A stretch of DNA of 11,267 bases from a virus (IMGVR_UViG_2526164634_000012:1-11267); one strand, 5' to 3'; shown: positions 1 to 11,267, counted from the first letter of the stretch. Program-made: numbers and translations. The notes: generated by a model from the sequence alone, not told the origin.

Positions 1-533
1 TGTGGGCGATTGACTGCGGCGATCTTCCGCTGGCGTTGCGTATTGGTGCGTATGTGGTCCGTCATAACCTCATTATGCCGGATAACTTTGGCCGTACTGC
101 TGCCACAGTGCTGACCGAAGAAATCTGCAACCCGGTACTGACGCAGGCCGGGGCGGATGCCGACGCGGATTTGTCCGCCTTTATCGAACCACTGGACACC
201 CTCCGGAAGATTGTCACCGACCAGGACATGCCGGACGAAGTACGCGCCAAATTATGCAAGGCGTGCGCCTTTGCCCGTCGTGGTCTGACCGATGCAGACA
301 ACATGGCCTTATCACTGAAGCTGCTGCGCGAAGCGATGCACCTGAACCCGAACGCAGGTGTGAAACGCGAGATTGCAACCCTTTCCCGCGCCCTGAAAAA
401 AGCCGATTCCGCAGCCGCATCAGAAGACGCCAGCGCACAGCAGGCGCAGGACGAAAGCAGCAAAAGTAAAAAGACAACGCGGAAGCCTGCAACACGAAAA
501 ACCACCGCGACGCAGAAGGCGAAGCGCGGTTAA
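1..533 (+). CDS. M: Terminase small (endonuclease) subunit, P2 gpM-like; 5'-partial, frame open from window edge
   Basis: Frame is open from position 3 with no stop until TGA at 531-533. Lys/Thr/Ala-rich basic C-terminal tail. Sits immediately upstream of an L-like gene as in P2. Confidence 0.75.
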   Translation, partial: WAIDCGDLPLALRIGAYVVRHNLIMPDNFGRTAATVLTEEICNPVLTQAGADADADLSAFIEPLDTLRKIVTDQDMPDEVRAKLCKACAFARRGLTDADNMALSLKLLREAMHLNPNAGVKREIATLSRALKKADSAAASEDASAQQAQDESSKSKKTTRKPATRKTTATQKAKRG

Positions 534-634
534 CGACTGACCCCGTCAGCGGGCGGCGTGCGCGGTGTTCCGGTTTGACTCCGTGGCCGTTTACACCGCG
601 CACCCACCGCCCGATTTTTTCAGGAGTGAATCCC

Positions 635-1129
635 ATGAGCATGGTTGCCAGAACCAACCCCGGCCCCGCAGAGGACGACATCACCGATACCGATGATGGT
701 GATACCCGTATTTCAGCGGGTGCATTCTGGCCGGATATTGTGCTGCGTGAGCTGCGTCTGGCGGTACGACTGCCGGGCCGTGTGACCACCTCCCGTCTGC
801 TGCATACCGCCACCGGGGCTGTGGCACATGTTACCCGCGAGCTGGAAGCATGGCAGCAGGAACAGCAGGCGGCTGGCCATCAGACGCTGGCCGATGTTCC
901 GGCACCCGTAATTAACGGAGAAAGCGTCAATCTCTGGCACTGGCGCAATGCGGTTTACACCGCCACACGCGCCCTGATTCTGGAGCGTTACCGCGATGCG
1001 GACACAACGGACAAGGGCGACCGCCGGGCGGACGCACTGGATATACAGACATCGGATTTGTGGCGTGATGTGAGCTGGGCCATCTCTGACATTCTGTGCC
1101 GTCCGCGAATCTTTGCGGAGTTGTGCTGA
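635..1129 (+). CDS. L: Head completion/stabilisation protein, P2 gpL-like
   Basis: ATG at 635 preceded by AGGAG (622-626); ORF-track ORF 575..1129 trimmed to this start. About 164 aa, close to P2 L. Stop TGA overlaps the ATG of the next gene by 1 nt. Confidence 0.8.
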   Translation: MSMVARTNPGPAEDDITDTDDGDTRISAGAFWPDIVLRELRLAVRLPGRVTTSRLLHTATGAVAHVTRELEAWQQEQQAAGHQTLADVPAPVINGESVNLWHWRNAVYTATRALILERYRDADTTDKGDRRADALDIQTSDLWRDVSWAISDILCRPRIFAELC

Positions 1130-1329
1130 TGAAAGTAAAGGCACTGGAAGGCGACACCGTGGATTCGCTCTGTTTCCGGTACTACGGCACGACGCAGGGC
1201 GTCACCGAAAAGGTGCTGGATGCCAACCCCGGACTCTGTCAGCAGGTATTTCTGGACGCCGGGCAGGAAGTGGAGATGCCGGAGCCGGAGAAGAAGAAAC
1301 GAGAAATGATTCAGTTGTGGGGGGAGTAG
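1129..1329 (+). CDS. X: Tail protein X (LysM-like), P2 gpX-like
   Basis: 66-aa ORF starting MKVKALEGDTVDSLCFRYYG..., matching the P2 X pattern (..GDTLD.ICVRYYG..NPGL). Start is the internal ATG at 1129 of track ORF 1096..1329. Confidence 0.8.
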   Translation: MKVKALEGDTVDSLCFRYYGTTQGVTEKVLDANPGLCQQVFLDAGQEVEMPEPEKKKREMIQLWGE

Positions 1330-1331
1330 CA

Positions 1332-1640
1332 GTGAGCACCATTCAAACAGGGATCACAGAGCAGGTTATTGCGTGGCTCTTTGACCACCTGCCAACGGTG
1401 TATGCAGTAGGCGCGGCGGTCAGCATTTCCGCGCTGATGAGTCTTTATGACGGACGAACACTGGTTCAGACCGTAACGGGATCGCTGGCGTGCGGCGTTC
1501 TTGCCATGGCCGTGGCCGGGTCGTTGCGCTTCTTCGGTTTTCCTGAAGATGCCGTGACGTTTATCGGCGCACTCAATCGGTTTTATGGGGGGCAGAGAAA
1601 GCACGCGACAAGGTTATTGCGGCCTTTAATCGCAGGGTGA
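1332..1640 (+). CDS. Holin (two predicted TM helices); 3' end uncertain, alternative frame ends at 1657
   Basis: GTG at 1332 preceded by GGGGGAG. Hydrophobic stretches TVYAVGAAVSISALMSL and LVQTVTGSLACGVLAMAVAGSL. Position between X and the endolysin matches P2 Y. Confidence 0.6.
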   Translation: MSTIQTGITEQVIAWLFDHLPTVYAVGAAVSISALMSLYDGRTLVQTVTGSLACGVLAMAVAGSLRFFGFPEDAVTFIGALNRFYGGQRKHATRLLRPLIAG

Positions 1641-1653
1641 AGGAGAAGGACGA

Positions 1654-2045
1654 ATGAGCAACACATTTAAATTCAGCAGCCGGAGCGAAAAGAATTTGCA
1701 GGGCGTAAATCCTGATCTGGTGAAAGTGACCCGACGGGCACTGGAAATCTCGGAAGCGGATTTGGTATCACCGAAGGGTTGCGCAGCCGTTACCGCCAGA
1801 AGCAACTGGTGGCCACGGGTAAGAGCCAGACCATGAACAGCCGCCACCTTACGGGGCATGCCGTGGATGTTGTGGCTTATATCGGCAGCCAGGTGTCATG
1901 GGAATGGTCGCTGTACGAAAAAATCGCAGCAGCATTCAGACAGGCCAGCCGGGAACTGAATATTCCGGTGGAATGGGGCGGCGACTGGAAGACCCTGAAA
2001 GACGGACCGCATTTTCAGTTACCACACGGAGCCTATCCGGCATGA
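1654..2045 (+). pseudogene. Endolysin, peptidase M15 (L-alanyl-D-glutamate / VanY-like) family; frame broken by apparent 1-nt deletion in T-run at 1761-1763
   Basis: Track ORFs 1654..1836 and 1779..2045 join into one ~131-aa protein if GATTTGG is read as GATTTTGG, giving ...EADFGITEGLRSRYRQKQLVATGKSQTMNSRHLTGHAVDV... with Zn-binding H-x6-D and downstream GPHFQ histidine. AAGGAG RBS lies upstream of ATG 1654. Confidence 0.7.
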
Positions 2046-2449
2046 AGCTCTGGCCCACGCTGGGTGTCGCTTTCCTTCTGATTGCCGCATGGGGAACATC
2101 CATACGTCTGTCGTGGTCGCTGGGCCGGGAGAACGCCAGAAACGAAGCGCAGGCCAGCACCCTGAAAAGTACCGTCGACACCCTGAATATCATCAGCACC
2201 GGGGTACAGGATATGCAGCAGGTGCTGGCGCAACTCCGCGTGGAAAATCAGCAACGCAATCAGGACGGAGAAGCCATACGTGAACAGCTACGCAACGATA
2301 TTGCAAAAGATGAATGCGCCCACGCTTTGCCTGATGCTCGTTTTACTGACAGGTTGCGCAGGCACGCAGAACGCGCCACGGCCAGCGCCGTCAGTCCGGC
2401 TTATACCGCAGACGCTGACCATACCGGTAACGCCTCCCCCCTTCCCTGA
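2042..2449 (+). CDS. lysB: i-spanin (Rz-like), P2 LysB-like
   Basis: ATG 2042 overlaps the endolysin stop (ATGA). N-terminal TM segment LWPTLGVAFLLIAAWG followed by a coiled-coil-like Q/E/R-rich region. Contains the embedded out-of-frame lipoprotein gene. Confidence 0.7.
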   Translation: MKLWPTLGVAFLLIAAWGTSIRLSWSLGRENARNEAQASTLKSTVDTLNIISTGVQDMQQVLAQLRVENQQRNQDGEAIREQLRNDIAKDECAHALPDARFTDRLRRHAERATASAVSPAYTADADHTGNASPLP

Positions 2450-2600
2450 CACTCCCACATGGGGAAATCTCGGTATATGGGGCGACCGCCTTCTGGATGC
2501 ACTGGAAACCTGTAACGCGGATAAACGGGCCATTGAATTACTGGAACAGCGCAGACTGCAACGACTGAACAACGAGGACAACAACCATGCTGAAAACTGA
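2310..2600 (+). CDS. lysC: o-spanin (Rz1-like outer-membrane lipoprotein), P2 LysC-like, embedded in and extending past lysB
   Basis: Lipobox LLTGC after a hydrophobic stretch; Pro-rich mature region. The 96-aa length from ATG 2310 equals P2 LysC; an alternative GTG start at 2280 has a better RBS (GGAGAAG). Confidence 0.65.
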   Translation: MNAPTLCLMLVLLTGCAGTQNAPRPAPSVRLIPQTLTIPVTPPPFPDTPTWGNLGIWGDRLLDALETCNADKRAIELLEQRRLQRLNNEDNNHAEN

Positions 2601-3054
2601 TTCCCTGCGTGAAGCCATGACCCGTTCATGCCGATGGTGTCAGGCCAACCCGGAAAAATTCACCATTTTCGTGGAGAGCGGCAACATTGAAACGACCGGA
2701 GAAACACCCTCGTTTGTTTACCGCTATCAGATGGTGATGTTTGTCATGGATTACGCCGGGGAGCTGGACGACCTCACGCTGCCGCTGCTGGCGTGGTTAT
2801 CCGAAAATCAGCCACAGTTGTTGCTCAACCCTGAGCGTAATCAGGACATCAAATTTTCCGCCGTTATCAATGACGATGACAGCGCCGATCTCCTGTTTAC
2901 GCTCCCCCTGCGGGAACGCGTTCGCATCACGCGCAGCAGTCAGGGCACACCGCAGGCAGAACACCTGCCGGAGCCAAAACCCCGCCTGCCATCTTCCGAA
3001 GGCGACTGGTCGCATGTATTCCAGGATGTGACGTGGGGTGAAAGCGATGGATAA
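2587..3054 (+). CDS. R: Tail completion protein R, P2 gpR-like
   Basis: 155 aa, the same length as P2 R. Starts MLKTDSLREAM... and contains LLAWLSENQP, matching the recalled P2 R pattern. Confidence 0.8.
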   Translation: MLKTDSLREAMTRSCRWCQANPEKFTIFVESGNIETTGETPSFVYRYQMVMFVMDYAGELDDLTLPLLAWLSENQPQLLLNPERNQDIKFSAVINDDDSADLLFTLPLRERVRITRSSQGTPQAEHLPEPKPRLPSSEGDWSHVFQDVTWGESDG

Positions 3055-3683
3055 GGCATTCACCCGCGTGGATGAAACCTTTGAGGCCATCCGCGACAGC
3101 CTGAATCAGCAGGCCATCAATAACATCGCCAGAAAGCTGGCACAGGATTTACGCCGCGCCCAGCAGGCGCGCATCCGGTCACAGAAAGCGCCGGACGGGA
3201 CCGCATGGACACCACGCAGACGCCGCGTAACCCGGATACAGGAGCGCATTCGCTTTATCTGGAATAACGAAGCACGCACGCTGAAAAACTGGCATCACGA
3301 CACGGGGAAATACGGGCGAACCATTACCGGGTGGGATGAGGATAAAAACAATATCCGCACGTTTTACCGGGATGACATCGACCGTTTTTCTGGAAATACG
3401 CACCCGGCGCATCAACCAGGACAGCACAAAGCGCGTCCCCATGTTCGTAAAACTGCGCACCGCCCGCTACCTGAAAGCCCGTGCAGATGCTTCCGGTGTG
3501 ACGGTGGGTTACAGCGGCGTGGCCGCACGTATTGCACGCGTTCATCAGTTCGGTGAGCGCGATCAGGTTGCGCCGGGCATTTTCACCGATTACCCGGTAC
3601 GTGAGCTGCTGGGTATCAGCCAGGCAGATGAGCGCCTGATTTATAACACGGTGCTGGGCCGGATTGCGGAGGCTGTACGGTGA
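3047..3683 (+). pseudogene. S: Tail completion / virion morphogenesis protein S, P2 gpS-like; frame switches at TTTTT run 3385-3389
   Basis: Track ORF 3038..3556 is protein-like only up to ...FYRDDIDRF, then becomes Arg/His/Pro/Cys-rich. Track ORF 3336..3683 is protein-like only from LEIRTRR onward (...IARVHQFGERD...YPVRELLG...). Removing one T joins them. Start could be GTG 3038 or ATG 3047. Confidence 0.55.
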
Positions 3684-4260
3684 GCGCAGAACTCATGCGA
3701 CTGCTGAGCAACATCATCCGTACCGGGATCATCTCTGAAGTTGATGAGGAATCCTGGTGCGTGCGCGTTCGCAGCGGCGAACTGGAAACAGGCTGGCTGC
3801 GCTGGAACACCACGCGCGCGGGAGCCTTCAATGTGTGGCTGCCGCCATCACCAGGCGAACAGGTGGTAATTGCCTGCATTGGCGGCAACCCGGAAACCGC
3901 CATGATAATTGGCAGCCTGTGGAGTGATGCCAGTCCGGCCCCCGGCAAAAGCCTGAAAGAAATCGTGATCAGCGCGCCGGATGGCGCGGTGTTCCGCTAC
4001 GACACGGACGCAGGCGCACTGAGCGCCAGCGGCATGAAAACAGCCACCCTGCAGGCATCCGTCAGCGTGACACTGGATACGCCCGTCGTGGAATGCACAG
4101 ACCTTCTGAGAACAGCGACGCTTGACGTCACAAAAGGGGGAAGATGAGCGGCAATATCACGCACAGCGGCGGCGATTTCACCTCAAACGGCATCACAGTG
4201 CATACGCATAAGCACGGTGGCGTTAAAGGTGGCAGCGATTCGACAGGAGGCCCGCAGTGA
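3680..4260 (+). pseudogene. V: Baseplate spike/assembly protein V, P2 gpV-like; frame broken near 4136-4143
   Basis: Track ORF 3680..4147 ends ...LDVTKGGR*. A short frame from 4144 encodes MSGNITHSGGDFTSNGITVHTHKHGG..., the His-rich apex motif of gpV. A 1-nt insertion in GGGGGAAG would give ...TKGGKMSGNITHSGG... as one ~193-aa protein. GTG start overlaps the S stop (GTGA). Confidence 0.7.
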
Positions 4261-4607
4261 CAACCCGCTACACAGGAATGAATCCGGACGGGACGGGAAA
4301 CCTGAACGATATGGAGCACCTGAAACAGTCAGTCAGGGACATCCTGATCACCCCGCTGGCAAGCCGGGTTATGCGACGGGAATATGGCAGCCTTGTGCCT
4401 GATTTGATTGACGAACCCATGAATAACACAACTCGTCTGCAATGCATGAGTGCTGCCGTGATTGCGCTGACACGATGGGAACCCCGCATTGCCCTGGACG
4501 CCATCGACGTTGTCTGGAAAGCGGGAGGCCGCGCCGGGGTGACGCTGTCGGGCACTGTCATGCAGACCATGCAGAATGTTGAGTTAACCATCACGCTGAA
4601 GGAGTAA
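4257..4607 (+). CDS. W: Baseplate wedge protein W (gp25/GPW family), P2 gpW-like
   Basis: 116 aa from GTG 4257, overlapping the V stop; position and size match P2 W (115 aa). An alternative ATG start lies at 4278. Confidence 0.75.
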   Translation: MTTRYTGMNPDGTGNLNDMEHLKQSVRDILITPLASRVMRREYGSLVPDLIDEPMNNTTRLQCMSAAVIALTRWEPRIALDAIDVVWKAGGRAGVTLSGTVMQTMQNVELTITLKE

Positions 4608-4610
4608 ATC

Positions 4611-5507
4611 ATGCCCGCCGTTGACCTTTCCCAGTTACCGGAACCCGCCATCATCGCGGAGCCTGACTTTGAGGCAATTCTGGCTGACACAAAGGCCATG
4701 ATGATTGCGGCTTATCCCGCCGAACAGCGTGAAGCCGTCTCCGCCGCGCTGGAGCTGGAATCGGAACCCCTGAACGTTATCGCCCAGACAACAGCGTTTC
4801 GTGAAATGCTGTTACGCCAGCGGGTCAATGAGGGGGCACGCGCCTGCATGTTAAGCCACAGCGCCGGGACAGACCTGGACAACCTCGCGGGCAATATGAA
4901 CACAAAGCGCCTGACCATCACTCCGGCAACGGATACCACCGACGCAGTGATGGAAAGTGACACCTCGCTGAGACTGCGGGCACAGCGGGCGTACGATGGC
5001 CTGAGTGTTGCTGGCCCGTCAGGTGCATACGAGTATTTTGCACGCAGCGCCAGCGGTCTGGTGCGTGATGCGCGGGCCATCAGCCCGTCTCCGGCCTGTG
5101 TGACGGTTTCCATTCTGTCCACTGAAGGCGACGGCACAGCAACGGAGGCGTTGCTTAATACCGTTCGCGCCGTTCTGAATGCAGAGGATACCCGTCCGGT
5201 GGCCGACCGCCTGACCGTACAGAGCGCCAGAATCGTGACATGGCGGCTGAATGCAAAACTGTACTTTTACCCCGGCCCGGAATCCGAACCTATTCTGGCC
5301 GCGGCTGAATCGTCGTTCAGGAAGTGGCTGGCTGAGCAGGGGCTTATCGGTCAGGACGTGGCGTTGTCCGCCATTGCTGCCGCACTGCATGTGCACGGTG
5401 TGCAACGCGTGGAGATAATCGAACCCACACAGAATATGGCCATCAGCGACATACAGGCGGCGCGCTGTGAGTCATTCACCATCAGCGAAGGTGGGCGCAA
5501 TGAGTAA
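4611..5507 (+). CDS. J: Baseplate protein J, P2 gpJ-like
   Basis: 298 aa; begins MPAVDLSQLPEP..., and contains ...RLTITPA...GLSVAG...SPSPACVT...RPVADRVTVQSA..., matching the recalled P2 J pattern. Confidence 0.85.
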   Translation: MPAVDLSQLPEPAIIAEPDFEAILADTKAMMIAAYPAEQREAVSAALELESEPLNVIAQTTAFREMLLRQRVNEGARACMLSHSAGTDLDNLAGNMNTKRLTITPATDTTDAVMESDTSLRLRAQRAYDGLSVAGPSGAYEYFARSASGLVRDARAISPSPACVTVSILSTEGDGTATEALLNTVRAVLNAEDTRPVADRLTVQSARIVTWRLNAKLYFYPGPESEPILAAAESSFRKWLAEQGLIGQDVALSAIAAALHVHGVQRVEIIEPTQNMAISDIQAARCESFTISEGGRNE

Positions 5508-6108
5508 TTCGTTGTTACCACCATCAGCCAGCAATTTCATGCGTTGTGCCGAAGCCGTCGGAACACGCATTACAGACATTCCGGTAGACCTCAACACGCT
5601 GTGGTCGCCGGACACCTGCCCGGTGCATCTGCTGCCTTATCTCGCCTGGGCGTTTTCCGTTGACCGCTGGGATCGCAACTGGCCGGAAGAGACAAAGCGA
5701 CAGGTGATTCGTGATGCATGGCTGATACACCGACACAAAGGGACCATCAGCGCACTGCGAAGAGCCGTGGAGCCTCTCGGTTACCTGATTGAAGTAAAGG
5801 AGTGGTGGCAACTCAACGAGGAGCCGGGAACATTTCGCATTGTTGTCGGAGTACTTGATCAGGGCATCACCGATGAAATGTATCAGGAACTTGAGCGCCT
5901 TATTGCGGATGCAAAACCAGTAAGTCGCCATCTGACGGGGCTGGCGATCAGCCTGAGTGTGAACGGAAAGATTTTCGTTGGTACGGGATGCTATCACGGC
6001 GATGCCCTGACGGTTTATCCCTACACCCCGGAGTCCATTATTGTCGAAGGGGACTATTTCCCTGCCCCGGCCATTCATTTAATTGATAATCTGAGAGTAA
6101 ACGCATGA
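5500..6108 (+). CDS. I: Baseplate/tail protein I, P2 gpI-like
   Basis: ATG 5500 after GGTGGG, overlapping the J stop. Contains WSPDTCPVHLLPYLAWAFSVDRWD and ...RLIADAKP.SRHL..., matching recalled P2 I. Start chosen inside track ORF 5467..6108. Confidence 0.8.
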   Translation: MSNSLLPPSASNFMRCAEAVGTRITDIPVDLNTLWSPDTCPVHLLPYLAWAFSVDRWDRNWPEETKRQVIRDAWLIHRHKGTISALRRAVEPLGYLIEVKEWWQLNEEPGTFRIVVGVLDQGITDEMYQELERLIADAKPVSRHLTGLAISLSVNGKIFVGTGCYHGDALTVYPYTPESIIVEGDYFPAPAIHLIDNLRVNA

Positions 6109-8137
6109 CAGTGAAATACTACGCCATTCTGACTAATCAGGGCGCGGCACGACTGGCTAACGCGACGATGCTCGGCAGTAAGCTGAATCTGACGCAAATG
6201 GCCGTTGGTGATGCAAATGGTGTGTTACCAACACCAGACCCTGCACAAACAAAACTGATTAACCAGAAACGCATTGCACCGCTGAATCTTCTGAGTGTTG
6301 ACCCTAACAATCAGAGCCAGATTATTGCGGAGCAAATCATCCCTGAAAACGAGGGAGGATTCTGGATCCGTGAGATTGGTCTTTATGATGATGAAGGTGT
6401 ACTCATTGCGGTGGCAAACTGCCCGGAAACGTACAAACCGCAGTTGCAGGAAGGCAGTGGTCGTACCCAGACTATCCGCATGATTCTGGTTGTCACGAAC
6501 ACCGAAGCCATCACGCTGAAAATCGACCCGTCTGTGGTTCTGGCAACCCGCAAATATGTGGATGATAAAATCTCAGAGCACGAACAGTCACGACATCACC
6601 CGGACGCCTCGCTGACCGCAAAAGGTTTTACTCAGTTAAGCAGTGCAATTAACAGTGAATCAGAAACACTGGCCGCAACACCGAAAGCAGTTAAGGCTGC
6701 ATATGACCTGGCTGACGGGAAATATACCGCCCAGAACGCCACCACAACACAAAAAGGGATTGTTCAGCTCAGTAGCGCCACGAACAGCACGTCTGAAACG
6801 CTGGCAGCAACACCAAAAGCTGTTAAGGCGGTAATGGATGAAACGAACAAGAAAGCACCATTAAACAGCCCGGCACTGACCGGAACGCCAACAACACCAA
6901 CAGCGCCACAGGGGACTAATAGTACCCAGATCGCAAGCACGGCTTTCGTTATGGCCGCGATTGCCGCACTTGTAGATTCGTCACCTGATGCACTAAACAC
7001 GCTGAGCGAACTGGCTGCGGCGCTGGCAATGACCCGAATTTTGCGACCACCATGACTAACGCGCTTGCGGGTAAGCAACCGAAAGATGCCACCCTGACGG
7101 CGCTGGCCGGGCTTGTTACTGCGGCAGACAGGTTTCCGTATTTTACGGGGAATGACGTTGCCAGTTTGGCAACCCTGACAGAAGTCGGGCGGGATATTCT
7201 TGCGAAATCGACCGTTGCCGCTGTTATCGAATACCTCGGTTTACAGGAAACGGTAAACAAGGCTGGTAACGCCGTTCAGCGTTCCGGCGATAAAATGACC
7301 GGAGAACTGAAAATTGGAACGATGAATGCGCTGCGAATTTTTAATGATGCCTTCGGTCTTATTTTCCGCCGTTCAGAAGAGTCCCTTCATTTCATCCCTA
7401 CGGCTGAAGGACAAGGCGAAAACGGTGATATCGGCCCATTAAGGCCATTCGCTATAAATCTAAGAACAGGTGCTATATATGTCAGCCACGGGGCCAAAAT
7501 TGAAGGAGGTCTAGCTATTGGTGCTACTGATAACGCACTGGGTGAAAACTCCATTGTTCTGGGAGATAACGACACCGGATTTAGGCAAGATGGAGATGGT
7601 ATTATTAGCTTCTATTCAAATGGTTCGCGCATCGGACATATTGATGGGTTAGGATTACATCTTTATAAAGATATTGAATCTAATTGCAGCAATTTTAGAT
7701 TAAAAAGTAATTACCGCCACCACATTACATTCACCAACGAAGACGGAAGTATTCGTATGTTTTTGTGGAAAGATAACGGTGGTGATGGTGTTCATATTAA
7801 TAACGGTTCAGATGGTGGTGGTGATTTCATTTTTAAAACAGATGGGGGATTTGCGCTGGGAAGTGGTGCGCAAGTTGCGTCTAGTGGCGATATTTATGGT
7901 TCAGTGTGGGGAAACAACTGGTTAAGCACATGGCTGCATAATCATGTCGTTCGGGATATTCGTCTTGGCAGCATTGAATATAAAAACGTATGGCGCGACT
8001 ACGGCTTTGGCGATGCGTCAGGTTATGTTTTAACAGCCGCAATTAACGGCAATGCGGATGATCTTGTCGACACTGTTGCCAGAAGGCCAATTCAGAAATT
8101 GATTGGGGGAATATGGTACAACGTGGGGAGTGTTTAA
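6105..8137 (+). pseudogene. H: Tail fibre protein H, P2 gpH-like; frame broken by apparent 1-nt deletion in G-run at 7025-7026
   Basis: Track ORFs 6105..7055 and 7052..8137 are the N and C parts of one gene. Reading CTGGCAAT as CTGGGCAAT restores ...ELAAALGNDPNFATTMTNALAGKQPKDATLTALAGL..., a junction I recall from P2 H. C-terminus ...[17 protein letters not shown] resembles the P2 H end. Confidence 0.8.
6624..6836 (+). repeat. Two copies of the phage tail-fibre repeat motif (QLSSA.NS.SETLAATPKAVKA) within H
   Basis: GFTQLSSAINSESETLAATPKAVKAA at about 6624-6704 and GIVQLSSATNSTSETLAATPKAVKAV at about 6756-6836, repeated at protein level with diverged DNA. Confidence 0.55.
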
Positions 8138-8138
8138 G

Positions 8139-8666
8139 ATGATGCACTTAAAAAATATTACTGCTGGCAACCCTAAAACAAAAGAACAATACCAGCTAAC
8201 TGAAAAAGCGGGCGTGGTATGGCTCTTTTGCGAAGATGGCAAAAACTGGTATGAGGAACAAAAGAATTTTCAGCCAGACACCATAAAAATTGCTTACGAT
8301 GAGAACAACATCATCGTTGCTGTCAGTAAAGACGTTTCAACTATTAATCCTGAAGGGCTAAGCATAGTTGAAGTTCCTGATATTACGGCAAATCGTCGCG
8401 CAGACAATAACGGAAAATGGATGTTTCTGTATGGTAAAGTAGTAAAGAGGGAATATACAGAACAGGAACTGCAACAACAGGCCGAATCACAAAAGGCCGC
8501 GTTGCTTTCTGAAGCAGAAAGCGTTATTCAGCCACTGGAACGCGCTGTCAGGCTGAACATGGCAACAGATGAGGAGCGTAGCCGACTGGAAGCATGGGAG
8601 CGCTACAGTGTTCTGGTCAGCCGTGTGGATACGGCAAATCCTGAATGGCCACAAAAGCCTGAATAA
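8139..8666 (+). CDS. G: Tail fibre assembly chaperone, P2 gpG-like
   Basis: ATG 8139 after GGGGAG, 2 nt after the H stop. 175 aa; N-terminus [21 protein letters not shown] and C-terminus ...[34 protein letters not shown] match recalled P2 G closely. Confidence 0.85.
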
Positions 8667-8671
8667 AAATT

Positions 8672-8700
8672 AAGGCCCGATAGCGGGCCTTGTCTCATTC
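8672..8700 (+). terminator. Putative rho-independent terminator after the V-W-J-I-H-G operon
   Basis: Perfect 8-bp stem AAGGCCCG / CGGGCCTT (8672-8679 and 8684-8691) with a 4-nt loop, followed by a T-rich but interrupted tail TTGTCTCATT. Confidence 0.4.
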
Positions 8701-8725
8701 GTAAGCGCATCATTTAAACCGTCTT
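8701..8725 (+). repeat. Putative left terminal inverted repeat of the IS66-family element (exact length not determinable without the right end)
   Basis: GTAAGCGCATCATTTAAACCGTC... begins 10 bp after the terminator hairpin; the right IR is outside the window so pairing cannot be verified. Confidence 0.4.
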
Positions 8726-8785
8726 TCGCCTCCCTTTCCTGTTTCCGATACTAATGTCCATTTTCGCAGTAAAAGGACATTTAAG

Positions 8786-9436
8786 ATGAATGCACGAAAA
8801 GCGGTACTGGCAGATAATCCAGAATTGATCCTGCGTGTGCTACAGCTGAGATTTGACGAGTCACTGTCGTACCCGCGCATTTCTGCGCAGACTGGTGTCA
8901 GCAAAACCGCCATTTTTTCTCTGGTGAGGCGATTTCACCAGGTATTCACTGACTGGCCTCTTTCCGGTGAATATTCCTGCGGGCAACTGGCCCGGGCTCT
9001 TTTCCCGGGGCGATACCCTTCAGCCCCGACCGTGACTCAGCCTGTGAAAGCAGAGAAACCCCGCCGGAACCGATTTTCACCGGAGTTTAAATGGAGACTG
9101 GTTCAGCAAACTCTTTTACCCGGTGCCTGTGTCGCACAAATAGCTCGAGAGAATGGAATTAACGATAACCTGCTCTTTAACTGGCGGCATCTCTGGCGTA
9201 ACGGTGGCCTGCAACCGCCCGGCGAACATGAAACATCGCTACTTCCCGTGACGTTAACTCCGGAGCCGGATAATAAAATCCCGGCACCAGTGCAGATACC
9301 TGAACAGATAAATACACTGCCAGACAGTCTGTGCTGCGAGCTGGTTCTGCCGGCCGGAACTCTCAGGCTGAAAGGTGAACTGACACCGGCGTTATTACAG
9401 ACACTTATCCGCGAAATGAAAGGGAGCAGCCACTGA
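8786..9436 (+). CDS. tnpA: IS66-family accessory protein TnpA-like, with an N-terminal extension of about 90 aa (HTH-like)
   Basis: C-terminal half ...RRNRFSPEFKWRLVQQTLLPGACVAQIARENGINDNLLFNWR... fits the IS66 TnpA pattern. AAGGA RBS before ATG 8786. Stop overlaps the tnpB start (TGATG). Confidence 0.7.
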   Translation: MNARKAVLADNPELILRVLQLRFDESLSYPRISAQTGVSKTAIFSLVRRFHQVFTDWPLSGEYSCGQLARALFPGRYPSAPTVTQPVKAEKPRRNRFSPEFKWRLVQQTLLPGACVAQIARENGINDNLLFNWRHLWRNGGLQPPGEHETSLLPVTLTPEPDNKIPAPVQIPEQINTLPDSLCCELVLPAGTLRLKGELTPALLQTLIREMKGSSH

Positions 9437-9782
9437 TGATATCTCTCCCTGCCGGTTCGCGTATCTGGCTGGTCGCCGGTATCACCGATATGCGAAATGG
9501 CTTTAACGGCCTGGCCTCAAAAGTTCAGAACGTCCTGAAGGATGACCCGTTCTCCGGGCATCTGTTCATCTTCCGCGGACGCCGGGTGACCAGATAAAAG
9601 TGCTGTGGGCTGACAGTGACGGACTGTGCCTCTTCACCAAACGCCTGGAGCGGGGCCGCTTCGTCTGGCCGGTCACCCGCGATGGAAAGGTTCACCTTAC
9701 TCCGGCTCAGTTGTCCATGCTTCTCGAAGGCATCGACTGGAAGCACCCGAAACGAACGGAACGCGCTGGCATCCGCATATAA
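9436..9782 (+). pseudogene. tnpB: IS66-family TnpB (orf2); frame broken by apparent 1-nt deletion in G-run at 9584-9586
   Basis: MISLPAGSRIWLVAGITDMRNGFNGLASKVQNVLKDDPFSGHLFIFRGRR then stops at 9595-9597. The shifted frame (track ORF 9600..9782) continues ...VLWADSDGLCLFTKRLERGRFVWP...LTPAQLSMLLEGIDWKHP. Reading CGCCGGGTGAC as CGCCGGGGTGAC joins them into a ~116-aa protein. Confidence 0.75.
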
Positions 9783-9801
9783 CCCGTTGTAAAGTGAGGA
9801 T

Positions 9802-11267
9802 ATGGACACCTCACTTGCTCATGAGAATGCCCGCCTGCGGGCACTGTTGCAGACGCAACAGGACACCATCCGCCAGATGGCGAAATACAACCGCCTGCTC
9901 TCACAGCGGGTGGCGGCTTATGCTTCCGAAATCAACCGGCTGAAGGCGCTGGTTGCGAAACTGCAGCGCATGCAGTTCGGTAAAAGCTCAGAAAAACTTC
10001 GCGCTAAAACCGAACGGCAGATACAGGAAGCACAGGAGCGAATCAGCGCACTTCAGGAAGAAATGGCGGAAACGCTGGGTGAGCAATATGACCCGGTACT
10101 GCCATCCGCCCTGCGCCAGTCTTCAGCCCGTAAACCGTTACCGGCCTCACTTCCCCGTGAAACCCGGGTCATCCGGCCGGAAGAGGAATGCTGCCCGGCC
10201 TGTGGTGGTGACCTCAGTCCTCTGGGGTGTGATGTGTCAGAGCAACTGGAGCTTATCAGCAGCGCCTTTAAGGTTATCGAAACACAACGTCCGAAACTGG
10301 CCTGTTGTCGGTGCGACCATATCGTGCAGGCAACAGTACCTTCAAAACCCATTGCACGCAGTTATGCCGGAGCGGGGCTTCTGGCCCATGTTGTTACCGG
10401 GAAATATGCAGACCATCTGCCGTTATACCGCCAGTCAGAAATATACCGTCGCCAGGGCGTGGAGCTGAGCCGCGCCACGCTGGGGCGCTGGACAGGTGCC
10501 GTTGCTGAACTGCTGGAGCCGCTGTATGACGTCCTGCGCCAGTATGTGCTGATGCCCGGTAAAGTCCATGCTGATGATATCCCCGTCCCGGTCCAGGAGC
10601 CGGGCAGCGGTAAAACCCGGACCGCCCGGCTGTGGGTCTACGTCCGTGATGACCGTAACGCCGGTTCGGAAATGCCCCCGGCGGTCTGGTTCGCGTACTC
10701 ACCGGACCGGAAAGGTATCCATCCACAAAATCATCTGGCCGGTTACAGCGGTGTGCTTCAGGCCGATGCTTACGGTGGTTACCGGGTGTTATACGAATCC
10801 GGCAGAATAACGGAAGCCGCGTGTATGGCTCATGCCCGGAGAAAAATCCACGATGTGCATGCAAGAGTGCCCACCGACATCACCACGGAAGCCCTGCAGC
10901 GTATCGGTGAACTGTATGCCATAGAGGCAGAAGTCCGGGGATGTACAGCAGAACAGCGTCTGGCGGCAAGAAAAGCCAGAGCTGCGCCACTGATGCAGTC
11001 ACTGTATGACTGGATACAGACTCAGATGAAAACACTGTCGCGTCACTCGGATACGGCAAAAGCGTTCGCATACCTGCTGAAACAGTGGGATGGCCTGAAC
11101 GTGTACTGCAGTAATGGCTGGGTGGAAATCGACAACAACATCGCAGAGAACGCCTTACGGGGAGTGGCCGTAGGCCGGAAAAACTGGCTGTTCGCGGGTT
11201 CCGACAGCGGTGGCGAACATGCGGCGGTGTTGTACTCGCTGATCGGCACATGCCGTCTGAACAATGT
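9802..11267 (+). CDS. tnpC: IS66-family transposase TnpC (DDE), 3'-partial, open to window end
   Basis: My own translation from ATG 9802 shows no stop to the window end; this ORF is absent from the supplied track, presumably because it has no stop. N-terminal leucine-rich coiled coil, Cys pairs CPACGG...CCRC, and motifs ...[12 protein letters not shown]..., ...HADD.PVPV..., ...LQADAY.GY..., ...[25 protein letters not shown]... typical of IS66 transposases. Confidence 0.85.

Follow-up and report, generated by a model that had tools for sequence, protein, structure and literature searches.

Single-base errors in the consensus of the draft contig AIHD01000041.1, most of them miscalled homopolymer lengths, very probably account for the frame breaks in six genes of a P2-like prophage and its adjoining insertion element in Escherichia coli DEC12D; in the strain itself, the genes for holin, endolysin, S, V, H and IS679 TnpB are most likely all intact. 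The window, which is the whole stretch of 11,267 bp that was analysed, is identical (100%, full length) to this 11,267 bp contig of the 2012 draft of the strain, whose assembly accession is GCA_000250275.2. The DEC collection was reportedly described by Hazen and co-workers in 2012. In literature text, accessions AIHA-AIHS are those of the DECA collection.

The window consists of two blocks, the late operon of a P2-like prophage (gpM' to gpG, positions 1-8700) and a copy of IS679 that continues up to the contig end; all features lie on the plus strand. From gpM to gpG, the late cluster shows the canonical gene order and the corresponding Pfam families. The contig start cuts the terminase small subunit gene gpM, of which the 3' part is left (1-533; Pfam Phage_term_smal), collinear with the annotated gpM of three relatives (L001-L003). 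The genes gpL (635-1129) and gpX (1129-1329) are intact and encode 164 and 66 aa, as long as in relatives. Also intact are LysB (2042-2449), the LysC/Rz1-like gene (2334-2600), gpR (2587-3054), gpW (4257-4607), gpJ (4611-5507), gpI (5500-6108) and the tail-fibre assembly gene gpG (8139-8666), which is followed on its 3' side by a GC-rich hairpin (8674-8689). The closest P2-like phages (Peduoviridae) are P88 / Xuanwuvirus and 500465-2 (Gemsvirus), with which the window shares the order M-L-X-holin-M15 endolysin-LysB/LysC-R-S-V-W-J-I-H-G and a nucleotide identity of 94-98%, while the identity to E. coli prophages reaches 98-99.7%. Unlike P88 and 500465-2, the deposited window contains six frame-broken genes, plus IS679 after gpG.

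The original prediction was a cluster of frame breaks in five or six genes, and such a cluster is present, comprising the holin, endolysin, S, V, H and IS679 tnpB genes; each of the six sites that had been named is found where it was placed, as a 1-bp length difference from the relatives. Seven 1-bp indels are involved, two in the holin gene and one in each of the other five, at a density of roughly 0.5 per kb. Six of them fall in mononucleotide runs of at least 3 bases (counted on the longer allele), which make up 15.9% of bases, so the association with homopolymers is above chance (binomial P about 1e-4); the seventh, at 1572, lies outside any run. The runs concerned are between 2 and 6 bases long, and most are short, with 2-5 bases. 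Three of the seven indels are extra bases and four are deletions, and hence the pattern is not one of pure under-calling, as had been proposed; over-calling contributes as well, and the indel at 1572 does not belong to a homopolymer. Likewise, four of the five clear cases had been read as a missing T or G, which holds for only three of them, since S has an extra T and V lacks an A. The expectation that the halves of the broken genes would be recognisable was borne out by matches of both halves to the expected Pfam families, except for the N-terminal endolysin fragment (60 aa), which has no Pfam match.

The holin gene (1332-1657), which had been listed only as possibly broken, is definitely so, by two insertions. 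Its deposited reading frame stops at 1640, ahead of the native stop at 1655-1657, and encodes 102 aa instead of the 107 aa of relatives. The first insertion is the extra, non-homopolymer C at 1572 (context GCGCA[C]TCAAT), which is absent in 14/14 relatives, and the second lengthens a G6 run at 1587-1592, which is one base shorter (GGGGG, GGGCG or GGGTG) in all 14. The M15 endolysin gene (1654-2045; 130 aa in relatives) is split into 1654-1836 and 1779/1809-2045, with Peptidase_M15_4 on the C-terminal half. Its T3 run at 1761-1763 is T4 in 13/13 relatives, and at 1757, 4 nt before the run, the window has a private change from T to C. A similar truncated endolysin on a Logan contig (P0017) is shifted by a -1 of its own, which the protein sequence places about 10 nt before that in the window.

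The gpS gene for virion morphogenesis or tail completion (3047-3683; 211 aa in relatives) is split into 3047-3556 and 3519-3683, both halves matching Phage_tail_S, by one extra T in a T5 run at 3385-3389 that is T4 in 14/14 relatives. Outside this contig, the same out-of-frame S tail occurs only in proteins from the drafts DEC8E and P0304777.1, where the frame is lost at a position of its own in each case; the S gene of DEC8E has a private additional A in an A4 run. For substitutions, the census of private changes is uninformative in DEC8E, because its prophage and the panel share only about 96% identity. The gpV gene for the baseplate spike (3680-4260; 193 or 188 aa in relatives) is split into 3680-4147 and 4144-4260, with Phage_base_V and Phage_spike on one half and Apex on the other. 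Here, the window reads GGGGGAA at 4136-4142 with one A missing at 4141-4142 (A2, as opposed to A3 in the relatives, adjoining G5 at 4136-4140); the relatives have GGGGGAAA in 10/14 cases and GGAGGAAA in two. The same stretch lacks one G in an error-laden assembly (L015), and in L034 and L040 genuine deletions truncate V.

The gpH tail-fibre gene (6105-8137) is split into 6105-7055 and 7052-8137 at a G2 run (7025-7026), which is G3 in all 11 relatives covering the site, and one added G restores an ORF of 677 aa. The last break lies in IS679, an IS66-family element whose left end, GTAAGCGC, starts at 8701 and which runs off the contig end (8701-11267). Annotated IS679 copies share 99.9% identity with it over 2,571 bp, and it shows the tnpA-tnpB-tnpC organisation and the terminal sequence typical of the IS66 family, with tnpA at 8786-9436, the broken tnpB at 9436-9782, overlapping tnpA in ATGA, and tnpC from 9802 to beyond 11267. 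It differs from the annotated copies in the loss of one G in tnpB, where a G3 run (9584-9586) replaces the G4 of intact IS679 copies, and its right end and the expected 8-bp target duplication lie beyond the contig.

None of the six phage indel alleles was found in the 14 relatives, and the frameshifted products of the holin, endolysin, S and V genes and the N-terminal part of H occur on no other contig in a search of about 15 billion proteins. The nearest relative (L007, an independent Logan assembly of SRR6185872) has no substitutions relative to window positions 2707-8700, and its holin, endolysin, S and V are all intact, at 107, 130, 214 and 193 aa, respectively. Reversal of the seven single-base changes yields six full-length ORFs, the products of which are 99-100% identical to intact proteins overall. 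Repair makes S and TnpB 100% identical to intact homologues and gives an H sequence that agrees in every letter with a protein encoded on 12 other contigs; in holin and V, the GTG start codon accounts for the only difference, and the endolysin is left with a single differing residue. Thus, no divergence has built up in reading frames that would otherwise be regarded as dead.

The breaks are also more clustered than natural variation would give. The phage part of the window (8.7 kb) has three private substitutions relative to the relatives, at 1757, 2277 and 2706, which gives a ratio of private indels to substitutions of 6:3, compared with 6:236 for the 14 ordinary relatives pooled (five indels from the census plus the G-run at 1587) and 11:3 for the error-laden assembly L015. 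The window therefore differs from the ordinary relatives (Fisher, p = 2e-7), with a ratio about 80 times theirs, and is compatible with L015 (p = 0.64). From this ratio, the contig identity, the private indels and their repair, it is inferred that read or consensus error is the cause: the draft consensus would have miscalled single bases in both directions, mostly in mononucleotide runs, and the miscalls would have produced spurious frameshifts in the holin, endolysin, S, V, H and IS679 tnpB genes. The sister draft DEC12A points the same way, as 2.68 kb of its IS679 (contig L027) differ from the finished genome FDAARGOS_1059 (CP066032) by five 1-bp indels, all private, and by two substitutions; the separate S shifts of the drafts DEC8E and P0304777.1 are in line with this. 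Errors of this kind are known from drafts made with early next-generation methods or from unpolished long reads, in which private 1-bp indels, mostly in runs and in both directions, outnumber substitutions; the return of known intact proteins upon single-base repair, the noise in the sister draft and a profile indistinguishable from that of L015 fit this class as well, while the one indel of seven outside runs and the shortness of the runs are unlike its typical members. The T6 run at 615-620 was considered as a further candidate error and rejected, since the panel is divided 7:7 between T6 and T7. No contig other than AIHD01000041.1 encodes LysB with the change at 2277.

Homopolymer miscalling had been proposed to be no less likely than a degraded prophage, and the private indels, the intact genes of the nearest relative, the repair, the indel-to-substitution ratio and the sister draft favour the former. 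According to the latter, selection would have been relaxed after the insertion of IS679, real slippage indels would have accumulated, and DEC12D would carry a cryptic remnant. IS679 sits precisely at 8700/8701, within the tail-fibre invertible segment, so relaxed selection is possible, and broken phage genes do occur naturally, as in the -1 in H of L007 and the V deletions in L034 and L040. The window also resembles the cryptic, decayed prophages of E. coli in its broken structural and lysis genes plus an IS insertion. Unlike these, it has no shared or older lesions, deletions or excess of substitutions, and the lesions that it does have are confined to a single draft contig. Genuine pseudogenisation is very unlikely, given the roughly 80-fold excess of indels over the natural ratio of the same region, the absence of any extra amino-acid change in the broken genes once they are repaired, the restriction of the phage alleles to this assembly, with no lesions common to related strains, and the same indel excess at a different locus in DEC12A. 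Moreover, the affected runs are short, and in mutation-accumulation studies of E. coli natural slippage is rare in short runs. A mismatch-repair-deficient mutator strain was also considered and rejected. In such E. coli strains, mutation-accumulation studies still find several substitutions per indel, with indels mostly in longer runs, and the 6:3 ratio does not fit this spectrum.

Most of the breaks could be errors and one or two real, the candidates being H (7025-7026) and IS679 tnpB (9584-9586). The nearest relative L007 also has a broken H, by a different -1 located 4 nt away (7020 versus 7024-7026) on a contig present in two samples, and a real H defect in the lineage is therefore conceivable. 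Both deletions closely precede the exchangeable part at the C-terminus of H, and in two near-identical prophages they could mark a slippage-prone site or a selected fibre-off site. However, L007 was found through a search with the exact C-terminal H product, which selects for a nearby frameshift, so that the proximity of the two deletions is largely a matter of ascertainment, and L007 keeps GGG at 7024-7026. That the H break is real and recurrent or, more broadly, that the prophage of DEC12D underwent a true burst of 1-bp indels is highly improbable. In the case of tnpB, the same truncated TnpB of 53 aa is encoded on seven other contigs, from several independent assemblies, in related IS66 elements, two of which have intact tnpA and tnpC (L023 and L025), suggesting that the change from G4 to G3 can probably also arise as a real mutation. 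The element in the window is, however, 99.9% identical to IS679, and in that context the G3 allele has no exact match at any of the 891 corresponding sites in 5,426 complete E. coli genomes. Repaired H and TnpB are also both identical to intact proteins, and such a mixture is very unlikely.

The position of every break at or beside a mononucleotide run would also suit programmed ribosomal frameshifting, transcriptional slippage or phase variation, by which full-length proteins would still be made. A programmed -1 frameshift is known in P2-like phages, where it acts in the tail chaperone genes E/E+E'. The six genes considered here are single uninterrupted ORFs in all relatives, the shifts go in both directions at runs of 2-6 bases that have no conserved slippery motif in common, and the alleles are unique to one contig, all of which makes a programmed shift almost inconceivable. 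Points that count against consensus error as the cause are the indel at 1572 outside any run, the shortness of most runs, the H break in L007, the recurrence of the truncated TnpB and the location of IS679 in the prophage, where selection may be relaxed.

As the breaks look like sequencing errors in a draft and not like prophage decay, the finding is an ordinary one, and its main value is for quality control. The apparent pseudogenes of this contig are unfit as grounds for calling the DEC12D prophage cryptic, for inferring gene loss in EPEC O111, or for training pseudogene and frameshift detectors. The comparison used here offers a practical test that needs no reads: private indels are counted against private substitutions relative to close relatives, and it is checked whether single-base repair returns known proteins. 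If the breaks were real, they would add a further case to the P2-like prophages in decay, which are nothing unusual.

The insertion of IS679 after gpG is an event of its own, and probably a real one. Among complete genomes checked for an insertion at this site, the only candidate with a longer match (H51) was rejected as a parallel, since its insertion is an unrelated one in a lambdoid prophage. The original prediction contrasted an inducible phage with a cryptic remnant, which is too simple, because IS679 occupies the tail-fibre invertible segment regardless of how the frame breaks are explained, and the remaining prophage lies off the contig. Within this segment, the C-terminal part of H and the G gene of the window are in the alternative orientation compared with FDAARGOS_1059.

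The window is identical, at every base and over its full span, to the 11,267-bp contig AIHD01000041.1 of Escherichia coli DEC12D (GCA_000250275.2); accessions AIHA to AIHS are drafts of the E. coli 'DECA collection', published in 2012. A P2-like prophage late operon occupies positions 1-8700, with the gene order gpM (3' part), L, X, holin, M15 endolysin, LysB, LysC, R, S, V, W, J, I, H and G, which shares 94-98% nucleotide identity with phages P88, P884B11 and 500465-2 and 98-99.7% with prophages of E. coli genomes. The IS66-family element IS679, which is 99.9% identical to annotated copies, runs from 8701 (GTAAGCGC...) to the contig end. The prophage is thus an ordinary P2-like one, and the insertion sequence is IS679.

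Compared with its relatives, the window contains seven single-base indels across six genes, three of them insertions and four deletions. The holin gene has gained two bases, an extra C at 1572, which lies outside any run and is absent from the relatives, and a G at 1587-92 (G6, against five bases in the relatives). The endolysin gene has lost a T at 1761-63 (T3 for T4), S has gained a T at 3385-89 (T5 for T4), V has lost an A at 4141-42 (A2, after G5, for A3), H has lost a G at 7025-26 (G2 for G3) and tnpB of IS679 has lost a G at 9584-86 (G3 for G4). Runs of at least three bases in the longer allele, which make up 15.9% of bases, contain six of the seven (binomial P ~1e-4). Every site named in the original prediction is a real 1-bp length difference from the relatives, but the extra C at 1572 had been missed, and the description of four of five breaks as a missing T or G holds for endolysin (T), H (G) and tnpB (G) but not for S and V. 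The T6 run at 615 is a natural polymorphism that splits the panel of 14 aligned relatives 7:7. The terminal G6 run of gpX (1319-1324) is G5 in phage 500465-2, in which X is annotated with 84 aa and the holin with 85 aa, and this run at the X/holin junction is a natural or annotation-level length polymorphism.

Judged from sequence comparison, the frame breaks are very probably an artefact of assembly, as the original prediction had preferred, and five lines of evidence support this reading: the privacy of the alleles, the comparison with the nearest relative, the known proteins obtained by repair, the mutation spectrum and the noise in other drafts. The six phage indels are found in none of the 14 relatives. 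Exact matching against some 15 billion proteins placed the shifted products of holin, endolysin, S and V, and the N-terminal one of H, on this contig alone. Across 5,426 complete E. coli genomes, 891 places were compared with the tnpB G3 allele, and none matched it exactly. The nearest relative, a Logan assembly of SRR6185872 (L007), shows a different picture: it has intact holin, endolysin, S and V genes, despite zero substitutions between the two sequences over 2707-8700. Of the 22 substitutions that separate them, 18 fall within window positions 1-640 (the 3' part of gpM and the gpM-gpL spacer), a pattern suggestive of a recombination patch or of a second P2-like prophage of the same genome having influenced this contig end.

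With the seven single-base changes reverted, all six genes again have full-length ORFs. S and TnpB repaired in this way match intact homologues at 100% identity, the holin and V differ solely at a GTG start codon, the endolysin differs in one residue, and the 677-aa H is letter-identical to a protein on 12 other contigs, so that the supposedly dead frames have not drifted. Genuine decay following the IS679 insertion is improbable, as it fails on this missing drift as well as on allele privacy and on mutation spectrum. In a census of changes private to each sequence over the same region, the window has six indels (five from the census and the G run at 1587 from a separate run comparison) and three substitutions, against six indels and 236 substitutions in 14 ordinary relatives pooled (Fisher test, p = 2e-7). 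Such a spectrum does not fit natural decay and is statistically indistinguishable from that of L015 (UGEB01), in which many phage genes are broken (11 private indels, three private substitutions; p = 0.64). The long public contigs UGEB01000001.1 (L015, L036 and L037) and JAVQOB010000001.1 (L038) carry P2-like prophages with many fragmented genes, such as portal, terminase, capsid and V, and, given the counts in L015, both assemblies appear heavily affected by indel errors.

Similar noise is present in other drafts. Against the finished FDAARGOS_1059 genome, the IS679 copy on a DEC12A contig from the same collection has five private 1-bp indels, several of them outside runs, and two substitutions in 2.68 kb. 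The out-of-frame S tail of the window recurs only in proteins of the drafts DEC8E, where the shift is an extra A in an A4 run, and P0304777.1, where S is shifted several times within ~80 nt. The differences of the window also cluster locally, as expected for low-quality stretches: 4 nt separate the first of its three private substitutions (1757, 2277 and 2706) from the T-run deletion, and the two insertions in the holin gene are spaced by 15 nt. The LysB variant with the 2277 change occurs nowhere else among the 15 billion proteins. The break pattern is most likely no biological feature and bears the well-known marks of early draft assemblies with single-base indel errors. A programmed frameshift or phase variation is scarcely credible, since the runs are short and the ORFs are uninterrupted in all relatives.

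A mixture, in which the breaks in H and/or tnpB are real, is a slim possibility, slightly slimmer than wholesale decay. For tnpB, the identical 53-aa truncated product and the G3 run both recur on seven further contigs from unrelated assemblies (L019-L021 and L023-L026), whose IS66-family elements are 94-96% identical to window 8701-11267 and, in L023 and L025, have full-length tnpA and tnpC. The change from G4 to G3 thus probably also arises naturally, and these contigs may represent a naturally circulating tnpB-defective IS66 lineage or a recurrent miscall. Within an IS679 context, none of the complete genomes has the G3 allele. For H, L007 is also split into 316 + 361 aa, through a different single-base deletion, at window 7020 (GCGGCG to GCGCG), and 4 nt from there still has GGG at 7024-26. 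A real H defect in the lineage of the two is possible, and the L007 deletion may be a real tail-fibre pseudogene, as its contig was seen in two samples. However, L007 was found by searching for the exact 361-aa C-terminal H product, a search that picks out assemblies frameshifted a short way upstream; the closeness of the two breaks is therefore largely ascertainment.

Gene G and the C-terminal portion of H (7224-8700) are inverted relative to the closest finished genome, FDAARGOS_1059. Alignment to it is collinear up to 7264 and inverted from 7224, an overlap which indicates that the window holds a Cin/Gin-type invertible tail-fibre segment in its alternative state, with a crossover site at ~7224-7264; the gene for the invertase is outside the contig. 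Whether the phage is inducible or cryptic, a distinction that the original prediction had raised, is undecidable on this contig, because the invertible segment contains IS679, and other contigs carry the tail-sheath, replication and lysogeny regions. The contig stops short of the right end of IS679 and of the target duplication, and every relative examined lacks an IS at 8700/8701. The insertion point falls exactly between G and G', the segment's two convergent tail-fibre assembly genes, and is just preceded by a GC-rich hairpin at 8674-8689.
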